A DNA stretch of 41,682 nucleotides from Candidatus Limnocylindrales bacterium (GTDB taxonomy: Bacteria; Moduliflexota; Moduliflexia; Moduliflexales; JAUQPW01). Every line of letters starts with the position of its first letter. Position 1 is the stretch's first letter. The translations under genes and the position numbers were made by a program. Below the pieces are notes generated by a model. The model did not search any database and was not told the DNA's origin. It saw only the letters and a list, made by a program, of their open reading frames with translations. The stretch is from the NCBI GenBank assembly GCA_035559535.1, contig DATMBG010000012.1, positions 248,001 through 289,682 of the forward strand, written 5' to 3'. Below are positions 8,538 to 27,651 of the stretch, piece after piece.

Positions 8538-10985
8538 TTACCTTTGGCCTCTTTCCCGATTCCAGGCAATACGTTCTCGCCATTCCTTAACTTCCTGCAA
8601 GATCTTAGGATGATTTTCATACTTGGGAAGTTGCTCAAAGTACTCAAGGGCTTGTTCCAGATGACCTGTTTGGAAGGCCCGTTTACCCAGGAGTCGTAGC
8701 AGTTTTACCTTTGCAAAATCTAGTTCAGGTTCTTCTTTCAGAAATTTCTCGGCATGCTCTTGGGTGGCTTTATCGACAGAAGTCCCCGGATTTTCGAGGA
8801 AGCACCATGCCAGGAGATAATGGGCCGGAGTTGCCAAAGGATCTTCCTCCAGCGCCTGGCGATAGAGATTTTGGGAATTCTGACTACAGGGATCAGAGGC
8901 TTCAATTCCCTGGATTAGCAGGGTTCGTGTCCGTTTATGAGAGAGGACAGCCCGATAGAAGGCTATCTGCTGCTTCGCCCCACGAATGTCGTATTCCAGA
9001 GTATTCCAATCATCCAGGGCTTTTACAGCTTCCTCAAATCGGCCAGCTTGTAAATATAATCGCGCTCGCACTTCAAGTACCTCGTTGAGGAGATCTCCAG
9101 AAGAAGGAGAGGAAGCGTAGAGAACTTCAATTAAACCGATGGCTTCATCATATAAACCCTGGCGACGAAGCGTTTCTATTTCCCGTAATCGGAAATATCC
9201 CGAAGAATCTCCCTGTTGGGCTAATTCGGCAAACAGAATTCGAGCCTGAGTAAATTGCCCGGTTTTTAAAAGCTGTTCGGCTAAAGCCTTCTTCTTCAGG
9301 AGGGGGTCTTTTCTACCCAGTCGGGGGCAAGACTGATGATAGAAAGGAGGAAATCGAGAATCATCAAACCCATATCGAATTCGCTGTTCAACTTCTGGTC
9401 TTACCGGAATTCTTTCCAAAAACCGGAACCAATCCTGTCCCAGTTCTTGAAGAGATCTGCCAAAGGAACCTTCGTAATCCAATGTGCGACAAAATAGAAG
9501 CAACCGGTCCATCCCATATTGATAAACCAGAAATCCATAGAAGGATCCTGCAATATCATAGGACTTATAAACCGATGTTTGTCCTAATCCAAACCCTTGA
9601 ACGGTCAGGACTTCAGGAGCAGGGGTTAGAACTCCGGCATGTCGAGCAGCAGCCAGTTCCTCATGGAAATCCTCTCCCCGCCAATAATCCTCCTCAATCA
9701 TTTCTGCCAACCCTTCCACAAGAGGTGGAAATACCCAAAACCGCCAGGACTTCTCGATCTGCCCTTCAAAAATATGGGCAATTTCATGCTTCAGTTTAAT
9801 TCCTAATCCGTCCGGTTCATAAACCACATGGATACTATTGGTAAAAGGATTCGCAAACCATGTTCCTCCCGCTATGGAAGTTAACCGATACTTTTGATCT
9901 TCAGAACTGTAAATATAAGAACTAATTTTTCCCTTAACCTCTTGACTTAAAAGTTGCTGGATCTGGTAATAATACCATTCATGTTCTTCGGCGAGTTGCT
10001 CCAATTTTTCCGATGCCGCAGATCTCGGTTCTACATGGAGGATAAAGTGCTTTGTTTCTTTTATCTCTGAAAGATGGCGCCGAATGGAGCCAGAACCTAT
10101 TGCAAATCCCACCTTTTCTGGAAAGAACCCGACCACAACCAGCAAAATTCCTACCCCAACGACCCCGGTGGTCAGGAAGGACTGTTCTGTTTTTTCTGTG
10201 AGAAGTAATTTTTCTTGTATAAAGTTCGGTTTTAGAGTTGACGCAATCTGAGGGTGAGATTTAAAATTTGTTTTTGCTTTCGGACTGTGCCGGAGCAGAA
10301 GAAGAATAGCCAGTAGAACATACCAGAAACCAAGCAGAAGGCTGATCATTCGATGCCAGTAATAAGATGGCGCCAGTTGGGTTAAGAAATTTCGACCTTG
10401 GGCCCAGGAGACGTCTGCAACTCCAAGAATGAGGTTATGAGGGACAACCCGAGGTCCCAGTATCCCTTCTAAGAGGGATATCATGGCGGTCAGAAGGAAA
10501 TAGGCTTTAAAGTATCCGCTGGCTCTTCTTCGATTAGGACAGAGGACACCTAAAAAGAACCCTACAAAAAGCCCGTGAAGGAGTGCCGGGAGTGTAACAA
10601 AACTGTAAATTCCTACAGCTGGAAGAAAATTGCAGTGACCAGTCCAGGAGTTATGGGTTCCATAAATCAGGAGCGGAAAAATCCAGGCTAAAAGGCCCAC
10701 ACCGAGATATCGCCGTAAATAATAATAGGAAGCTACGGTAGGACTTGCCAGAAATAAAAGTTTCCCGTTTTTCTGCCGAACAAGAAAAAAAGGATCTTCT
10801 CCACCGGTCTGGGCCAGTGTCTGCCCAACTTGTATTCCTCGACGTCCCATCATGAAAAAGAAAAGGATGGCAATCAGAGCGCTAGGTTCATAACCCAATA
10901 CATTCAAGAGGGGAAATTGGAGGAACAGAAGAGGGATGAAAAGGAAAAGAAAAAATTCAGCAACAAATTTTTCTTTTAAATTCAT
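8538..10985 (-). CDS. Membrane-anchored putative zinc metallopeptidase (gluzincin/MA-like) with C-terminal TPR-like repeats
   Basis: About 7 N-terminal TM segments; HEIAH followed by VEGLAE (HExxH...E); helical repeat C-terminus. Confidence 0.7.
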   Translation of the reverse strand: MNLKEKFVAEFFLFLFIPLLFLQFPLLNVLGYEPSALIAILFFFMMGRRGIQVGQTLAQTGGEDPFFLVRQKNGKLLFLASPTVASYYYLRRYLGVGLLAWIFPLLIYGTHNSWTGHCNFLPAVGIYSFVTLPALLHGLFVGFFLGVLCPNRRRASGYFKAYFLLTAMISLLEGILGPRVVPHNLILGVADVSWAQGRNFLTQLAPSYYWHRMISLLLGFWYVLLAILLLLRHSPKAKTNFKSHPQIASTLKPNFIQEKLLLTEKTEQSFLTTGVVGVGILLVVVGFFPEKVGFAIGSGSIRRHLSEIKETKHFILHVEPRSAASEKLEQLAEEHEWYYYQIQQLLSQEVKGKISSYIYSSEDQKYRLTSIAGGTWFANPFTNSIHVVYEPDGLGIKLKHEIAHIFEGQIEKSWRFWVFPPLVEGLAEMIEEDYWRGEDFHEELAAARHAGVLTPAPEVLTVQGFGLGQTSVYKSYDIAGSFYGFLVYQYGMDRLLLFCRTLDYEGSFGRSLQELGQDWFRFLERIPVRPEVEQRIRYGFDDSRFPPFYHQSCPRLGRKDPLLKKKALAEQLLKTGQFTQARILFAELAQQGDSSGYFRLREIETLRRQGLYDEAIGLIEVLYASSPSSGDLLNEVLEVRARLYLQAGRFEEAVKALDDWNTLEYDIRGAKQQIAFYRAVLSHKRTRTLLIQGIEASDPCSQNSQNLYRQALEEDPLATPAHYLLAWCFLENPGTSVDKATQEHAEKFLKEEPELDFAKVKLLRLLGKRAFQTGHLEQALEYFEQLPKYENHPKILQEVKEWRERIAWNRERGQR

Positions 10986-10997
10986 GATCAGATTTCC

Positions 10998-11471
10998 TTA
11001 AATCGCCATGATCGTAACCTGTTGGCCCCGATAGGTAGTACGCTCAACCACGGACCATCCGAGGCGAGTATAAAAACTTTCCTTATCTGTAGTAAAAAGA
11101 TACAGAGGTTGAATCCCCAGGATTCTGACTTCTTCAACAACCCGGTGAACAAGAGCCGAGCCGATTCCACATCTCCGGAATTCAGGAGCAACATAAACAC
11201 TGGCCAGCCAGGGAGACAGGTTCATCCGGGTATCCATATCATGGGGAATTAAACTGGCAGATCCCAGTAAAGTTTCTCCCCGCAAAGCGATAAAGGTCGT
11301 TGGAATTTGCCCAGGACCCCCATGACTCTGAAGCCAGGCAATACGCCGTTCTACAGAGTCTCCGGGATTGAGATAGCTCCACTCCCTATAATGCCAGCGG
11401 GCAAGTATCGGAATGTATTCCGGACGGTTTACAAGATATTCGATTTGAAAAGGTTGAAGGGATTGACTCAT
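10998..11471 (-). CDS. GNAT family N-acetyltransferase
   Basis: Acetyl-CoA motif A WLASVYVAPEFRRCGIGSALV, and FYTRLGW. Confidence 0.92.
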   Translation of the reverse strand: MSQSLQPFQIEYLVNRPEYIPILARWHYREWSYLNPGDSVERRIAWLQSHGGPGQIPTTFIALRGETLLGSASLIPHDMDTRMNLSPWLASVYVAPEFRRCGIGSALVHRVVEEVRILGIQPLYLFTTDKESFYTRLGWSVVERTTYRGQQVTIMAI

Positions 11472-13656: not shown

Positions 13657-14919
13657 TTGAATTCCATAAACAGTAACCATCGGATTCTTCTTCTCTTACC
13701 TACCCGAACTTACCGGGCAGGGGCTTTCCTTAAAGCGGCCCGACAATTGGGCATCGAGGTTGTGGTTGGTTCTAATCAGGCGCAGACATTGTCCAGGTAT
13801 CTGCCTGCGAGGTCACTAACCCTTAATTTTCATAAACCTGAGCAGGCAACCCAGAAAATCGTTGAGTTTGCCAGGAAATATCCCTTCGATGCCGTCGTAG
13901 GAGTCGACGATGATTCAGTTCTGCTGGCAGCCATGGCCTCTGCAGCGTTATCCTTACCCCATAATTCCATTGAATCCGTTATAGCGACCCGAAACAAGTA
14001 TCGAATGCGGGAAATTCTGACCAGGGCCGGAGTTCCTTCACCGGATTTTTGGCTTTTCTCCCTGGAGGATCCTCCTACCGATCTGGCTAAAAAAGTCACC
14101 TTCCCCTGTGTGGTCAAACCCGTGTCTCTGTCGGCCAGTCAAGGGGTTATCCGGGCAGATGATGAAAAGCAATTCGTCCAGGCATTCTACCGGCTGGCTT
14201 CTATCCTGGAAAACCCGGAAGTTCGAGATCGCCTGGGTACCGCAGCACGGCAAGTCCTGGTCGAAGGTTTTATTTCCGGACCGGAATTTGCTTTAGAAGG
14301 GCTCCTCATTCAAGGAAAGCTTAAAGTATTGGCCCTTTTCGACAAACCGGATCCCCTGGAAGGCCCGTTCTTCGAGGAAACCCTCTATATCACTCCTTCT
14401 CGATTCCCTACCTCCATTCAAGAAGCCATCGCTGCCTGCACAGCTCAGGCTGCAGAAGCACTTGGATTGAAGGAAGGACCTGTGCATGCGGAGCTTCGGT
14501 ATAACCATCGAGGACCCTGGATAATCGAAATTGCGGCCCGATCCATTGGAGGACTCTGTTCCCGAACACTCCGTTTTGGAACCGGCCTCTCTCTGGAAGA
14601 ACTCATCCTCCGCCATGCTGTAGGACTCGAAATTGAATCCTTCGACCGTGAAAAACCTGCAGCCGGGGTAATGATGTTACCCATTCCCCATGCGGGAATT
14701 CTACAGGCTGTACACGGAAAAGAACGCGCCGCTCAAGTGGAAGGTATTGAGGAAATCGTTATCAGCATTCCTTTGGAACAGGAAGTTCAGCCGCTACCCG
14801 AAGGCTCTAAGTACCTGGGTTTTATCTTTGCCCGGGGTGAATCCCCCGCCTTTGTGGAAGAAGCCCTACGAGAAGCTTACCGACGACTTGAGATTGTAAT
14901 CATACCGCAAAAATATTGA
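13657..14919 (+). CDS. ATP-grasp domain protein (L-amino-acid ligase/carboxylate-amine ligase-like)
   Basis: Motifs RNKYRMR, FPCVVKPVSLSASQGV, LVEGFISGPE, HAELR and IEIAARSIGG; SD AGGAGG before the TTG start. Confidence 0.88.
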   Translation: MNSINSNHRILLLLPTRTYRAGAFLKAARQLGIEVVVGSNQAQTLSRYLPARSLTLNFHKPEQATQKIVEFARKYPFDAVVGVDDDSVLLAAMASAALSLPHNSIESVIATRNKYRMREILTRAGVPSPDFWLFSLEDPPTDLAKKVTFPCVVKPVSLSASQGVIRADDEKQFVQAFYRLASILENPEVRDRLGTAARQVLVEGFISGPEFALEGLLIQGKLKVLALFDKPDPLEGPFFEETLYITPSRFPTSIQEAIAACTAQAAEALGLKEGPVHAELRYNHRGPWIIEIAARSIGGLCSRTLRFGTGLSLEELILRHAVGLEIESFDREKPAAGVMMLPIPHAGILQAVHGKERAAQVEGIEEIVISIPLEQEVQPLPEGSKYLGFIFARGESPAFVEEALREAYRRLEIVIIPQKY

Positions 14920-15202: not shown

Positions 15203-17428
15203 GTGCAATTGACTTTTCAAACTACGCTGACGGCCCTTCTACTGGTCTTACTGATCCCTACGGTATCGGTAGTAGGCTTTTTCTCCTACTTTAATACGCG
15301 ATTCACCGCAGATGACCTCTCTTCGCAAATCCTCGATCAAACCTTTAAGTTAATCGACCATCAAATTGAGACCTTACTGGATGCCGCATCCAGACAGAGT
15401 CAGATGGATCTGGTCATCCTCAGCAAGAAATTGCTGACTACCAACAATAAGAGGCTTACGGCAAGCGATTTTGGGTGGATCACCGACTACTTCCATGAGA
15501 TGATGAAAATCCACAAACATCTGACCTTCCTCTCCCTGGGTTTAGAAGCTACCGGAGAGTACTGCCATGTGAGGCGTATGCCTAAAGATTGGATGCCTTC
15601 TCGGGCACTCACTGGCAGCAAAGAAGAGGAGATGGTGAAGTTCCAGCCCAGGTTGACCATTCAATATGCTATTCGAGATCCGTCAGGAAAGATCGTAAGG
15701 AGTGAGTTTTATCTTACCGAAGACGGCTCGCGAGAACTTTATTTGGTGGATCCTGATTTTTCCTACGATCCAAGGACGCGACCCTACTACCGGACAGCCC
15801 AGACTGCAGGGACTCCGATCTGGACTCAGGTCTATATTTTTAATGCCCCCCCGGAACCGGGTATTCCCGGCATTACTTACGCTACGCCGGTCCGGGGATC
15901 GGATGGTTCATTGATAGGGGTATTGACCGCTGATCTGGATATTTACAACCTGAGTGAATTCCTCCAAACTCTCAAAATCGGCCAGACCGGTTTTGCTTTT
16001 GTTGTTGAAGTTCGTCCTAAAGGCAATCTGGAGGAAGAACAAAGGCAGGTGATTGCCTATCGTGATCCAAAGAACTTTATAAGGATTGTTCAACGAGGGA
16101 GCCAGCAGGTGCATGAGTTGGTTCCAGGCAAAGAACTCTCCGATCCACTCCTGCGTTCGTTTATGCAAAACCTTCCACCGACAATCGATTTCGACAAAAT
16201 AAAATATCCTGTACCCCTGAGGTTTATCCAGGGTGGGGTGGAATATATGGGGGGTTATCGTCCCTTAGGAGGCAAACACGGCTTAAAGTGGCTGATCTGT
16301 ATCGTAGTTCCCAAGATAGACTTTATGGGACATGCTGATAGAAACAACCTGATTACTGCGAGTATCGGCCTGGTCAGCCTGGTGATTGCAACTCTTCTCA
16401 GTATCTTGCTGTCTATGAGGATCTCCCGGCCACTGAAACAATTGGCCAGAGAAACAGAGGCGATCGGTCAGTTCTACCTTCAGCCCAAGCCCATAGTACG
16501 TACCATTGTGAAAGAGGTGGACCGTCTTACCCTGGCAGTAGAAGAAATGAAGACCAGCCTGAGATCTTTTCAGAAGTATGTCCCTGCAGATTTGGTACGT
16601 TCTTTGGTGGCTTCAGGACAGGAAGCCCGATTGGGAGGGGAACTCAAAACCCTTACCATTTACTTCTCGGATATCGCCAATTTCACATCTATTTCAGAGA
16701 AACTTCCCCCCAACGTATTGGTAGAACTCCTCGGAGAATATCTCAGTGCAATGAGTGAACAAATCCTCGAGAGTGGTGGCACGGTGGATAAATACATGGG
16801 GGATGGAATTTTAGCCTTTTGGGGTGCACCCTACCCAAATCCTCAACATGCCCTCACGGCCTGTATAACCGCCCTCCGCAGTCAAGAAAAACTTAAAGCA
16901 CTGCGTGAGAAGTGGAAAGCCGAAGCCAAGCCACTCCTCTTTTCCAGGATTGGCCTGAACACGGGAGAGTTGATAGTTGGCAACATCGGGGGGGAATCGA
17001 GATTAAATTATACGGTCATTGGGGACCCGGTGAATTTGGCCAGCCGCCTGGAAAATCTGAATAAATATTATAACACAGCGATTCTAATTAGTGAAAGTAC
17101 CTATCTCCTTGTAAACCAGGAGGTTGTGGCCAGGCCTCTGGATTGGGTATCCGTCAAGGGGAAGACAGAAGGGATTTTGATCTATGAATTGCTGGGACTC
17201 AAGGGAGAAGTAAGCCAGAAAGAAGAACGGTTGGTTGAGCTTTACTCTGCAGCGCTTACCGTATACCAAACTCATCACTGGAGCCAGGCTATCGAATTTT
17301 TTCAAAGGGTTATGGAGTTATATCCCAAAGATCTTCCAACTCAGTTAATGATTAAGCGTTGCAAGAACTACCAGCAGAATCCCCCTCTAGAGGATTGGGA
17401 TGGTATCTGGCGGATGCAGAGCAAATAG
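15203..17428 (+). CDS. Membrane class III adenylate cyclase (Cache-like sensor, HAMP, cyclase, TPR tail)
   Basis: TM, YDPRTRPYY Cache-like region, TM and HAMP; catalytic FSDIANFT, DKYMGDG and YTVIGDPVNLASRLE (K/T specificity residues indicate ATP). Confidence 0.9.
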   Translation: MQLTFQTTLTALLLVLLIPTVSVVGFFSYFNTRFTADDLSSQILDQTFKLIDHQIETLLDAASRQSQMDLVILSKKLLTTNNKRLTASDFGWITDYFHEMMKIHKHLTFLSLGLEATGEYCHVRRMPKDWMPSRALTGSKEEEMVKFQPRLTIQYAIRDPSGKIVRSEFYLTEDGSRELYLVDPDFSYDPRTRPYYRTAQTAGTPIWTQVYIFNAPPEPGIPGITYATPVRGSDGSLIGVLTADLDIYNLSEFLQTLKIGQTGFAFVVEVRPKGNLEEEQRQVIAYRDPKNFIRIVQRGSQQVHELVPGKELSDPLLRSFMQNLPPTIDFDKIKYPVPLRFIQGGVEYMGGYRPLGGKHGLKWLICIVVPKIDFMGHADRNNLITASIGLVSLVIATLLSILLSMRISRPLKQLARETEAIGQFYLQPKPIVRTIVKEVDRLTLAVEEMKTSLRSFQKYVPADLVRSLVASGQEARLGGELKTLTIYFSDIANFTSISEKLPPNVLVELLGEYLSAMSEQILESGGTVDKYMGDGILAFWGAPYPNPQHALTACITALRSQEKLKALREKWKAEAKPLLFSRIGLNTGELIVGNIGGESRLNYTVIGDPVNLASRLENLNKYYNTAILISESTYLLVNQEVVARPLDWVSVKGKTEGILIYELLGLKGEVSQKEERLVELYSAALTVYQTHHWSQAIEFFQRVMELYPKDLPTQLMIKRCKNYQQNPPLEDWDGIWRMQSK

Positions 17429-17479
17429 TATTTGTTGCAAAAACGGCTACCTGATCCACATTGATGAAGAAGTAGATAA

Positions 17480-18922
17480 CTAAACCAGAGCAAACTGCTC
17501 TTCCGTAGGCTCGGCTCAGCAATACCAGGGTTCGCTTAAGTAAGGAACGCTGGTGGAAGGGTGTAGATCCAAAGGTTCTCTTGCCGATTCGGGTTGATTT
17601 AAAGCCCTACGGACACAAGACCGAATAGCATCAAAAATCTCCCGTCGGGTTGATTTCTTCATAATACCCTTACGGACGAGTTTAGTTACTTCCTGGTACA
17701 ACTGTTCAACCCGGGGATCACGATGGGTCCAGCGATAGCTTAACCGCTCTACCTCAAAGGGACCTATCAAGGCCCTGACCTCAGGGAGTTCCAGAAGCTT
17801 TGAGCCTTCAGGAATCAATAAGCGAATGGCTAACTGGATAGGAGCTACGTGGTCTATCAAATTCAAGTCATCTAGTAAGGTAAGTAACTCCAGATAACCT
17901 TCCAGGGTCGTCCACGGGGTGAAGGTCACAAAGGTTGGATTAAGGGTTAAATCGTGCTCCTGAAACAACTGCACGACCTTTATGAAATCTTCTCGAGTAT
18001 GGCCTTTGTTCAGGATCGCCAGCACATGATTATCGATGGATTCTACAGCTGTTGTTACAATAGCACAGCCGGTTTCACGCAGGACAGGCAGATAAGAAGC
18101 ATATTTCAGCAGATGCTCCACTTTGATGGTTACGTCGTAGGAAAGATGGGGATATTCCCGATGAAGCGCCTGAACCAGGGGAATGGTATGACCGATACCG
18201 TTGAAAAAATCCGGGTCGCCAAAGGTGATATGCTGAGCACCGGCTTCTACTTGCTGACGAATGTCCTGTAAGACGACCTCTTGTTGTACAATCCGAAATT
18301 TCCCTTGATAAACAGGTACAATAGGGCAATGGCGGCAGAAATGTTTGCAACCTCGACTGGCTTCTACATAACCTACTTTTCGGAAGGTTCCTTTCCCAGT
18401 ATAGAACCGTGCATAATTGGATAGATCTGGAAGATCCCGCCGATCTGGAACCAGAAATTGCTGACGATTTCTTGAGATAACAGGCTCGACCTGCTTTGAA
18501 GGTCGAGGGACCTGAGTTGGGAGACCTCCGGCTTCTGAATACGCCTTTTCGATCTCCCTATAAAACCGTTTACAGAACTGTACCAGACCCTCTTCAAATT
18601 CCCCTCCAAGAATCACCTCTACACCCAATTCACGTAAATACCTTTCGTTCAAGGGAGCATATAACCCATAAAAACAGATGGATACTGTCGGGTTAAGTGC
18701 TTTGATCTTAGCAATGAGTGGAATGGCCAGGCGTGTGGCAGTATGCATTGGAACGTAAAGTGCTACCACATCTGCCGTCTTAAGGGTCTCTTCGGACAAT
18801 TCTTCAACGGCCAGATCCAGGCAGACCACCTCAAATCCCTCACGTCGTAACCATGCAGCCGGTGAGGCAAGACCAAAGGGTTGACGACCCAACTCATAAG
18901 TTGAGATCAAAACAATTTGCAC
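17480..18922 (-). CDS. CUAEP-tail radical SAM selenoprotein (B12-binding-like N-domain plus radical SAM; Sec at TGA 17516-17518), 480 aa
   Basis: CxxxCxxC (RGCKHFCRHC). Reading through the TGA gives EPWYC-U-AEPTEEQFALV-TAG, with a SECIS-like hairpin directly downstream of the TGA. Confidence 0.88.
17481..17518 (-). promoter_or_regulatory. Bacterial SECIS-like element
   Basis: mRNA UGA-GCC-[GAGCC]-UACGGA-[AGAGCA]-GUU-[UGCUCU]-[GGUUU]: 6-bp upper stem, apical loop starting with G 20 nt after the UGA. Confidence 0.7.
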
Positions 18923-19021: not shown

Positions 19022-19609
19022 CTACTTGGAGGGTTGGTAATAGGGATTCTTTCCACCTGCATGGTCCGTTACATCAAGAACCTGTGTAATCTCAGGTACC
19101 TCTTCTTTAATCATAACCTCGATGCCCTGTTTCAAGGTAACGTCCACCATTCCGCATCCCTGGCATCCTCCACCCAGTTGCACATATACCACGTTATCTT
19201 TGATATCTATAAGGGATACATAGCCTCCATGCGCTGCTATGGCAGGGTTAATTCGGGTATCGATCAACTGCTGGATCCTCTGAGCTACAGGTCCTGTAAG
19301 ATGGGCCGGCAGCTTTTTAGGTGCATCTATTTTGAACCCGCTACTCATGATATTATCGACGTAATCCAGGGTTGCGTTTTCTAAATACTGGGCACTTTGA
19401 GGATCAATATAAATATCAAATCCCTCAACGGGTACAACGATATCTTCCGGTTGTTCCTGTCCCTCGACGATAAAAAGCAGACGGTGCTCAACTTTTAAGG
19501 GTGATTTGGCCTCAGCAATGACCCGTAGCCCTTTGATAGGCTTTCCGGTCTTTTGCATCAGCTCAAGCACCTTTTCTCTGGCAACTTCGGTAACTGTTAT
19601 CATAGACAC
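19022..19609 (-). CDS. nfuA: NfuA-like Fe-S cluster carrier (degenerate A-type domain plus NifU domain)
   Basis: N-terminal ITVTEVAREKV...LDYVD...GFKI lacking A-type cysteines; C-terminal INPAIAAHGG...GGCQGC...DVTDHAGG. Confidence 0.85.
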   Translation of the reverse strand: MSMITVTEVAREKVLELMQKTGKPIKGLRVIAEAKSPLKVEHRLLFIVEGQEQPEDIVVPVEGFDIYIDPQSAQYLENATLDYVDNIMSSGFKIDAPKKLPAHLTGPVAQRIQQLIDTRINPAIAAHGGYVSLIDIKDNVVYVQLGGGCQGCGMVDVTLKQGIEVMIKEEVPEITQVLDVTDHAGGKNPYYQPSK

Positions 19610-26193: not shown

Positions 26194-27651
26194 TTAACCT
26201 TTTACATTTCCGATGGGGATGAATCGAGCCACGCGTCGACTGATTCCGGCTCGTTCGGTAGCTTCAACCACCTGATCCACATTTTTATAAGCTCCTCCGG
26301 CTTCTTCGGCCAATCCGGCAAACGAAACACTCCGAACATAGATTCCCCGTTGGGCCATCTCTTCTTGAAGTTTTTTACCCTGAAATTGCTTTTTAGCTTT
26401 CGTACGGCTCATGGTACGCCCGCTTCCATGCGCCGTGCTGAAAAAAGTCTGAATGCCACTTTCCACACCGGCTAACAAATAGGAGCCGGTTTCCATACTT
26501 CCTCCAATAATGACGGGTTGCCCAAACTTTTTATAAATATCTGGAATCCCTTCCATATCAGGACCAAAGGCTCGAGTGGCTCCCTTTCGGTGAACCAATA
26601 CGTTTCGCACCTCCCCATTAATTTCATATTTCTCTAATTTAGCCGTGTTGTGAGCTACATCATAGACCATATGCATACCTAAATCTTCAGGGCTTCGATG
26701 AAGAACGTCTGAAAATACTTCTCGAATTCGATGGAGAATCACCTGACGATTCGCAAAGGAAAGGTTGATGGCACATTTCATGGCGGCAAAGTAATCCTGC
26801 CCTTCCGGGGAATGGAAAGGTGCACAGGCCAGTTCACGATCCAGAATTTTGATCTTATATTTGCTTTCCATGACCTTCAAAAAGGCCTGAAGGTAATCGG
26901 TAGCTACCTGATGCCCGAAGCCCCGGGAACCACAATGAAACATGATGACCACCTGATTGGGGATGGTAATTCCAAAGGCTTTAGCCAGCTCCGGGTCAAA
27001 GATATATTCGGGCTTGGCCACCTGAATTTCCAGGTAGTGGTTTCCGGAACCCAAAGTTCCTACCTGATCTTTCCCCCGCTCGATGGCTTTCTTACTGATT
27101 TTTGAGGCATCAGCTCCCTGGATGCACCCATTTTCCTCGGTTCTGGTTAAATCTTCTGCCCATCCTAGGTTATTTTTTATACACCACCGGGCTCCGGTCT
27201 CTATCACATGGCAAAATTCATCCTGGGAAAGTTTGATAAACCCGGTACACCCCACCCCGGCCGGAACGCGTTTAAATAAGTTATCCACTAAAGCCTGGAG
27301 ATGGGGCTTGACTTCCTCGTAGGTTAGATTGGTAAGGACCAGCCGCATTCCACAATTTACATCAAAACCTATTCCTCCCGGTGAAATCACGCCGGTCTCT
27401 GCATCCATCGCCGCCACCCCCCCAATGGGAAAACCATAACCCCAGTGGGCATCGGGCATACAGTAAGCATAGTTAAGGATACCCGGTAGCGTAGCAACGT
27501 TGGTAATCTGGTCAAAAACCCCTTCATCCATAGAAGTTAAGAGTTCTTCGGTGGCATAAATCCGGGCAGGAACCCGCATTCCTTCTTTATAGGAAGGTGG
27601 TATTTCCCAGATGGTGTCCGAAATTTTTTTGATAAATTCGGGAATCGCCAT
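26194..27651 (-). CDS. rtcB: RNA-splicing/repair ligase RtcB (archease-partnered type)
   Basis: Motifs PDAHWGYGFPIGG, DVNCGMR, GSGNHYLE, HCGSRGFGH, HN, HRKGATR and HGSGR; AAGGAG SD. Confidence 0.96.
   Translation of the reverse strand: MAIPEFIKKISDTIWEIPPSYKEGMRVPARIYATEELLTSMDEGVFDQITNVATLPGILNYAYCMPDAHWGYGFPIGGVAAMDAETGVISPGGIGFDVNCGMRLVLTNLTYEEVKPHLQALVDNLFKRVPAGVGCTGFIKLSQDEFCHVIETGARWCIKNNLGWAEDLTRTEENGCIQGADASKISKKAIERGKDQVGTLGSGNHYLEIQVAKPEYIFDPELAKAFGITIPNQVVIMFHCGSRGFGHQVATDYLQAFLKVMESKYKIKILDRELACAPFHSPEGQDYFAAMKCAINLSFANRQVILHRIREVFSDVLHRSPEDLGMHMVYDVAHNTAKLEKYEINGEVRNVLVHRKGATRAFGPDMEGIPDIYKKFGQPVIIGGSMETGSYLLAGVESGIQTFFSTAHGSGRTMSRTKAKKQFQGKKLQEEMAQRGIYVRSVSFAGLAEEAGGAYKNVDQVVEATERAGISRRVARFIPIGNVKG

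Follow-up and report, generated by a model that had tools for sequence, protein, structure and literature searches.

Does the radical SAM protein encoded on the minus strand of this locus end where its open reading frame ends, or does the apparent stop codon specify selenocysteine, and what might a protein with such a C-terminus do? In the window, by which we mean the whole stretch of 41,682 nucleotides that was analysed, the table-11 open reading frame runs from 18922 to 17516 (minus strand), comprises 468 codons, has PYLSEPWYC at its end and stops at 17516. The minus-strand letters of this region are TGG TAT TGC TGA GCC GAG CCT ACG GAA GAG CAG TTT GCT CTG GTT TAG, and translation through the TGA gives W-Y-C-U-A-E-P-T-E-E-Q-F-A-L-V followed by a stop. 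The earlier note on this DNA had placed the end of the frame at TGA 17516 and had given the same continuation, exactly in both coordinates and letters; it was also correct in stating that gene callers truncate the protein by 12 residues, that is, by the TGA codon and the 11 sense codons that precede the TAG. The relevant parts of the gene are the following.

17480-18922, minus strand: predicted full gene of the radical SAM selenoprotein, with a GTG start at 18922, the Sec codon, an 11-codon tail and TAG at 17482-17480 (480 residues)
18326-18349, minus strand: CxxxCxxC motif (C192, C196 and C199; sequence CKHFCRHC) for the radical SAM [4Fe-4S] cluster
17516-17518, minus strand: in-frame UGA, read as selenocysteine U469, directly after the invariant Cys468
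17483-17515, minus strand: tail codons AEPTEEQFALV, whose translation depends on decoding of the UGA
17482-17512, minus strand: SECIS-like stem-loop, with the upper stem 17501-17497/17491-17487, the loop around G24 (17495) and the lower stem 17512-17508/17486-17482

The read-through protein matches the NCBIfam family NF040546 (CUAEP/CCAEP-tail radical SAM (seleno)protein) with 631.1 bits (cut-off 500), residues 3-478 being aligned with profile positions 1-467 of 468, and a six-frame search of the genome with the same profile yields a match of 624 bits with one TGA inside. The C-[U/C]-A-E-P motif of the family is present as WYC-U-AEP at residues 466-472. The named CUAEP/CCAEP-tail family to which the protein had initially been assigned is matched end to end above the cut-off. 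The window gene has in common with the family the full-length HMM match, the CxxxCxxC motif, the EPWYC-U-AEP tail and the alternation of Sec and Cys at one codon, and nothing essential differs, except that a Cache/adenylate cyclase gene in the window separates the usual ligase partner from the radical SAM gene. The window gene is a further member of a curated NCBIfam family and not a discovery. A literature search for the family name returned only the preprint of Haft and Gwadz (bioRxiv 10.1101/2022.07.06.499078), the available text of which names the family in one sentence, as uncharacterised, in agreement with the earlier claim that the reaction of the family is unknown; supplements, which are outside the reach of such a search, may list the family. 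A table in a 2026 review lists other radical SAM selenoproteins (TIGR04167, TrsS), and "CUAEP" occurs 0 times in the main text of that review.

The catalytic part of the protein is that of a radical SAM enzyme. The Pfam domain Radical_SAM (PF04055) is matched with 50.6 bits and the B12-binding domain with 29 bits, under its cut-off of 32.1. C192, C196 and C199 are invariant among the aligned family members, as are, beyond the CxxxCxxC motif, C286 and C468. The AlphaFold model (mean pLDDT 85.3, pTM 0.87) consists of a Rossmann-like N-domain and a radical SAM core; its confidence falls toward the C-terminus, where the 10-residue blocks of residues 441-470 have mean values of 62-71 and the values of residues 472-480 lie below 50. 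A Foldseek search with this model retrieves only generic B12-type radical SAM folds, the best solved structures being AprD4, TsrM and OxsB, and a sequence search of the PDB found no solved ArsL or CUAEP-family member (best match 9ccb, E 1.1e-5).

The codon in question and the tail that follows it can be traced through the family. Of the top 120 homologues in the database, 108 have ..W[YF]C as their very last residues and the other 12 run on into CCAEP(T)xxQ. When genomic loci from named public records are compared instead, the codon at the position of U469 is TGA in 67 of 80 loci and TGC or TGT in 13 of 80, and the conserved AEPxxxQ then follows. Both the CCAEP variants and the conservation past the UGA that the earlier note had expected of an alignment of homologue C-termini were found. 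In the codon-position analysis, which comprised 66 TGA rows (locus L113 was left out here and kept in the 67-row hairpin counts below), the first and second positions of the A-E-P codons are invariant (65-66 of 66 rows) and the third positions are occupied by 2-4 different bases. Invariant first and second positions combined with free third positions indicate that the tail is a translated sequence; at the level of sequence comparison, this pattern shows that the predicted tail after the UGA is under protein-level selection. An alternative genetic code was considered and ruled out because TGA serves as the stop of 3 of the 19 other long open reading frames in the window. In one locus of Anaerolineales (L062), the codon is TGT, yet the genome keeps selA and the downstream sequence keeps part of the hairpin; this locus may represent a recent Sec-to-Cys replacement.

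The letters that encode the tail also fold into a hairpin, AGAGCA-GUU-UGCUCU (nt 18-32 from the U of UGA; 17501-17487), set on a lower stem GAGCC/GGUUU; the upper stem comprises nt 18-22/28-32, and G24 lies 20 nt after the UGA. For the window alone, the minimum free energy is -18.3 kcal/mol (z -1.01), a value reached by 30 of 200 shuffles; since the single-sequence fold is no better than chance, the significance of the hairpin rests on comparison with relatives. Conservation across the family extends only to the upper hairpin; the lower stem occurs in the window and in its nearest relative. No SECIS or other relevant Rfam family was matched, either by the whole window at gathering thresholds or by positions 17380-17620 at E up to 10; a match to mir-196 (E 3.6) was dismissed as chance.

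Across the family, the hairpin spans nt 16/17 to 33/34 from the U of UGA, starts 12-13 nt after the UGA and has the loop AGKUK. G24 is invariant in the 67 TGA sequences, whereas only 8 of the 13 Cys-codon loci have a G there; it is the synonymous third base of the Gln codon CAG (in 66 of the 66 TGA rows of the codon-position analysis). At least five contiguous loop-closing pairs are formed in 57 of 67 TGA sequences vs 0 of 13 Cys loci, and the mean folding energies are -10.0 and -3.7 kcal/mol, respectively (Mann-Whitney p 2e-8, which is overstated because the compared sequences are related). Compensatory changes, counted in one fixed register, amount to 41 cells changed on both sides, compared with 17.1 in shuffles and a value that high in 0 of 500 shuffles; the pair 17-33, for example, is AU in 27, GC in 20 and CG in 4 sequences. 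No such signal is apparent in the Cys loci, in which 45.1% of cells are paired vs 43.8% in shuffles. The fraction of cells paired in one fixed register is only 75.8% because two registers, with 4-nt and 5-nt loops, occur, and a per-sequence pair count accordingly replaced the single fixed register. This comparison shows that the predicted hairpin with its invariant loop G is confined to loci with UGA at the codon in question. The earlier description of a bacterial SECIS-like stem-loop with a G 20 nt past the UGA is thereby borne out, its letters being confirmed and its support coming from the G24 and pairing counts across the family.

In the SECIS element of Escherichia coli fdhF, the upper stem-loop lies 11 nt from the UGA and contains an essential G and U in its loop. 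The family hairpin resembles this type in being a short hairpin inside the coding region, 12-13 nt after the UGA, with an apical G then U, and differs from it in having no sequence similarity, no Rfam model and two registers; binding of SelB here is putative. By the mechanism established in bacteria, SelB-GTP-Sec-tRNA(Sec) would bind the hairpin inside the coding region and deliver Sec to the ribosome at the UGA, whereupon translation would continue for 11 codons to the TAG.

The machinery for this decoding, predicted earlier as selA/selB/selC/selD, is encoded in the genome of the window. SelA (622 bits), selB (409 bits) and selD (389 bits) are all detected above their cut-offs, and so is tRNA-Sec (74.5 bits), which ARAGORN likewise reports as tRNA-SeC with the anticodon tca. 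The SelD protein of this genome (locus L010; C29:76668-77594) is itself a selenoprotein, with one in-frame TGA near its N-terminus (ECGGUAAKL). All five of the compared genomes that carry the TGA form of the family have selA, vs one of the five that carry the Cys form; because the assemblies are incomplete, these absences are soft.

The machinery, the Sec/Cys homologues, the selection on the tail, the hairpin, the co-occurrence with selA and the unchanged code leave Sec insertion as the only reasonable reading. To judge from these genomic data, the apparent TGA stop almost certainly encodes selenocysteine, so that the real protein is 12 residues longer than the open reading frame. We put at about 0.9 the probability that the product is a radical SAM selenoprotein of 480 residues belonging to the NF040546 family. 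The opposite view, that the TGA is a true stop, that the protein ends at Cys468 and that the downstream similarity is a relic, finds some support in the 108 of 120 homologue entries that end at that very point and in the unremarkable character of the window hairpin by itself. Against it stand the conservation of the A-E-P tail with free third positions over 66 rows, the tie of the hairpin and of G24 to the TGA, and the presence of the Sec machinery, with selA tracking the TGA form; a true stop is very improbable.

This is a large family, with relatives encoded in at least 598 matched stretches of a collection that holds a single genome for each species; the main sources of the loci are records of Acidobacteriota, Methylomirabilota, Latescibacterota and Chloroflexota. 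In the small phylum of the window, the family occurs in two of nine genomes, both of the window's genus, and this restriction to one genus suggests that the window gene was acquired by transfer. In a quick FastTree phylogeny (83 rows, rooted on a Bacillus RCCLKC-tail protein, with the two longest branches meeting), the window protein groups with locus L052, to which it is 95% identical, followed by a sequence from Latescibacterota as the next nearest row (support 98). The Cys forms are placed at at least 6-7 separate positions among the TGA forms (minimum of 7 changes, 6 of them forced by well-supported branches), and this scatter suggests that Sec was repeatedly replaced by Cys. A cultured carrier of the family is Thermomicrobium roseum DSM 5159, in which the gene TRD_RS12835 (L132:6935-8440) on the megaplasmid NC_011961.1 is annotated as ending in ESWFC; the DNA runs on with TGA GCG GAG CCG and can form a GGACCC/GGGUCC hairpin, so the RefSeq entry is probably that of a truncated selenoprotein. 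A PLP aminotransferase and an MFS transporter are encoded next to this gene.

The function of the Cys-Sec tail has to be considered in the context of the gene neighbourhood, for which three further features of the window are relevant.

13657-14919, plus strand: ATP-grasp L-amino-acid ligase, the conserved partner of the family, with ATP-grasp_4, ATPgrasp_N and LAL_C2 domains
15203-17428: Cache/adenylate cyclase gene, between the ligase and the radical SAM gene
19022-19609, minus strand: NfuA-like Fe-S cluster carrier with NifU and Fe-S_biosyn domains (NfuA TIGR03341, 154 bits, under the cut-off of 269)

The ligase is the most frequent neighbour of the family, being present in 46 of 81 loci. 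When the count is confined to the 64 loci that extend 2.5 kb or more downstream (six loci whose radical SAM gene the ORF filter failed to parse being left out), the ligase is present in 44, and 43 of 47 ligase ORFs begin -300 to +1500 nt from the end of the radical SAM gene. In the window, the ligase gene is convergent to the radical SAM gene and parted from it by the Cache/adenylate cyclase gene. The window ligase reaches no NCBIfam equivalog; it matches the L-amino-acid ligase BL00235 (PDB 3vot) over residues 25-412 with E 1.8e-49 and BacD with E 1.7e-15, with the LAL_C2 domain in common. The NfuA-like gene lies 99 nt upstream of the radical SAM gene on the same strand, an arrangement found likewise in 9 of 81 loci, and its product is a probable helper for cluster loading. 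Other conserved neighbours among the 81 loci are aconitase (26 loci), DUF169 (11) and YggX (11), alongside NfuA (9), and also G6PD and HAD. In 12 loci (e.g., L092:9173-9598 and L060:9501-9947), the ligase gene is followed by a gene for a protein of roughly 150 residues, on the same strand in 8 of the 10 that were counted; this protein matches nothing in Pfam at E up to 1 and may be a further member of the module.

Several other ORFs of the window can be described briefly. The minus-strand ORF at 11502-12794 matches polynucleotide kinase-phosphatase (714.7 bits vs a cut-off of 750) over the first 425 of 851 profile positions only, the ligase-like half being missing; it ends in TGA, and the next minus-strand ORF (10998-11471) is an unrelated GNAT. 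The ORF at 26194-27651 (minus strand) encodes an RtcB-family RNA ligase that best matches the model for intein-containing RtcB, over profile positions 578-961 of 961, with 688 bits, under the cut-off of 1150. The 815-residue ORF at 8538-10985 (minus strand) has no NCBIfam match at E 1e-5.

The second-best family for the radical SAM protein is ArsL (NF040542), with 309.2 bits over residues 4-423, under the cut-off of 450, and the third-best reaches 49 bits; identity to the RCCLKC-tail proteins is about 34%. ArsL, an enzyme of arsinothricin biosynthesis, splits SAM to methylthioadenosine and a 3-amino-3-carboxypropyl unit that is joined to As(III), and its RCCLKC tail, which binds arsenite, is dispensable for SAM cleavage and essential for the C-As product, according to the available text of the two ArsL preprints (bioRxiv 10.1101/2024.02.01.577332; bioRxiv 10.64898/2026.04.29.721666). 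The two proteins have in common the catalytic body, with a Rossmann-like N-domain and a radical SAM core, and a Cys-rich C-terminal tail, which in the window protein is predicted with low confidence. They differ in that the RCCLKC arsenite-binding motif is absent from the window protein, whose tail reads EPWYCUAEPTEEQFALV (the B. cereus member of the ArsL family ends in KRCCLKC); CUAEP follows an extra stretch of about 45 residues and offers two chalcogen ligands vs the three thiols of ArsL. Furthermore, ArsL is not a selenoprotein according to the available text of the ArsL papers, in which "selen" has 0 occurrences. No arsenic gene context (arsM, arsQ, ars resistance genes) was found among the neighbour clusters of the 81 loci, and the sole ArsN-like match in the window is a weak match of a GNAT to ArsN2 (44 bits vs a cut-off of 125), about 6 kb away.

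An ATP-grasp gene is also found close by in the arsenic islands of Bacillaceae. On each of the 3 Bacillaceae plasmids examined, the RCCLKC-tail gene sits in an arsenic island with an ATP-grasp gene close to it; the islands are syntenic with one another and so are not independent. The ATP-grasp protein of these islands is 25% identical to the window ligase (E 2e-26). In the islands of the Bacillus cereus and Priestia plasmids (L133, L134, L135), the ATP-grasp gene lies beside ArsR and an MIP channel, and a GNAT acetyltransferase encoded there is annotated as ArsN1 in the two Priestia records and as plain GNAT in B. cereus. This arrangement hints at a possible ligation of ArsL-type products to a further amino acid in the Bacillaceae islands as well.

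By analogy with ArsL, the protein might transfer the 3-amino-3-carboxypropyl unit onto an atom held by the Cys-Sec tail, with dipeptide formation to follow, a proposal that we make tentatively. In this scheme, the vicinal thiol and selenol of the EPWYCUAEP tail, which is presumably flexible like the tail of ArsL, would grip a soft heteroatom substrate and bring it to the [4Fe-4S]/SAM site; the amino acid so formed would pass to the neighbouring L-amino-acid ligase to yield a dipeptide, and the NfuA or YggX neighbours would service the Fe-S cluster. Several observations speak against an ArsL-like mechanism: the protein falls short of ArsL membership in score (309 vs 450), in its tail and in its gene context; ArsL uses three Cys residues whereas the tail here has only Cys and Sec, the family-invariant C286 being a candidate third ligand; the ligase of the window is displaced and convergent; and the ATP-grasp proteins of the CUAEP loci and of the ArsL islands are only distantly alike. 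The more specific form of the proposal is somewhat doubtful, namely that the tail would act as a selenium-based substrate clamp, with the 3-amino-3-carboxypropyl unit being joined to a soft heteroatom other than the arsenic of the ars islands, and that together with the ligase (and in some lineages DUF169 or YggX) it would constitute a pathway to an unusual amino acid or dipeptide.

The main rival to an ArsL-like mechanism is a redox function. A C-terminal Cys-Sec pair forms a selenenylsulfide on a swinging tail in mammalian thioredoxin reductase, and a redox-active selenenylsulfide on a comparable tail could quench or reduce a substrate radical by donating a hydrogen atom or electrons, in otherwise canonical 5'-deoxyadenosyl radical chemistry, with no heteroatom bound. 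Such a role would fit the conserved neighbours, which are not metalloid genes, the repeated exchange of Sec for Cys (at least 6-7 events on the tree), a usual feature of redox Sec/Cys pairs, and the best structural matches, AprD4, TsrM and OxsB, which are ordinary B12-type radical SAM enzymes; it would also fit the statement, in review abstracts, that most bacterial selenoproteins are redox enzymes. Yet no other family comes nearly as close as ArsL, whose tail serves to bind substrate, and CU dipeptides are described in the available text of one preprint as rare and as occurring mostly in proteins thought to touch heavy-metal atoms (Haft and Gwadz, bioRxiv 10.1101/2022.07.06.499078); on balance, we consider the redox role rather unlikely. 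Less probable still is that Cys468 and Sec469, perhaps with C286, ligate an auxiliary iron-sulfur cluster or a structural metal, in the manner of the extra Cys motifs of many radical SAM enzymes. The invariance of C286 and C468 outside the CxxxCxxC motif would be explained in this way, and genes for Fe-S helpers are repeatedly found nearby (NfuA in 9 of the 81 loci, YggX in 11); however, only two or three ligands would be available on a tail of low confidence, a small number for a cluster, and deletion of the ArsL tail leaves the iron and sulfur content unchanged, as stated in the available text of the ArsL preprint (bioRxiv 10.1101/2024.02.01.577332).

For annotation, the outcome is that the window gene and most database homologues are cut at least 12 residues short and thereby lose the residue that is likeliest to matter; this truncation affects 108 of the best 120 homologues as well as the RefSeq entry of the cultured T. 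roseum. The significance of these observations belongs to the whole family, with nothing peculiar to the window. To our knowledge, ArsL is the only canonical-fold radical SAM enzyme that makes the 3-amino-3-carboxypropyl unit, and the CUAEP family is its nearest relative, large and uncharacterised, with a chemistry that is directly testable. If the tail indeed clamps a substrate in the manner proposed above, the family would be the second example of a non-canonical, ArsL-type radical SAM enzyme and would join the few cases in which selenocysteine binds a substrate instead of performing redox chemistry, and it would define a widespread, unstudied pathway.
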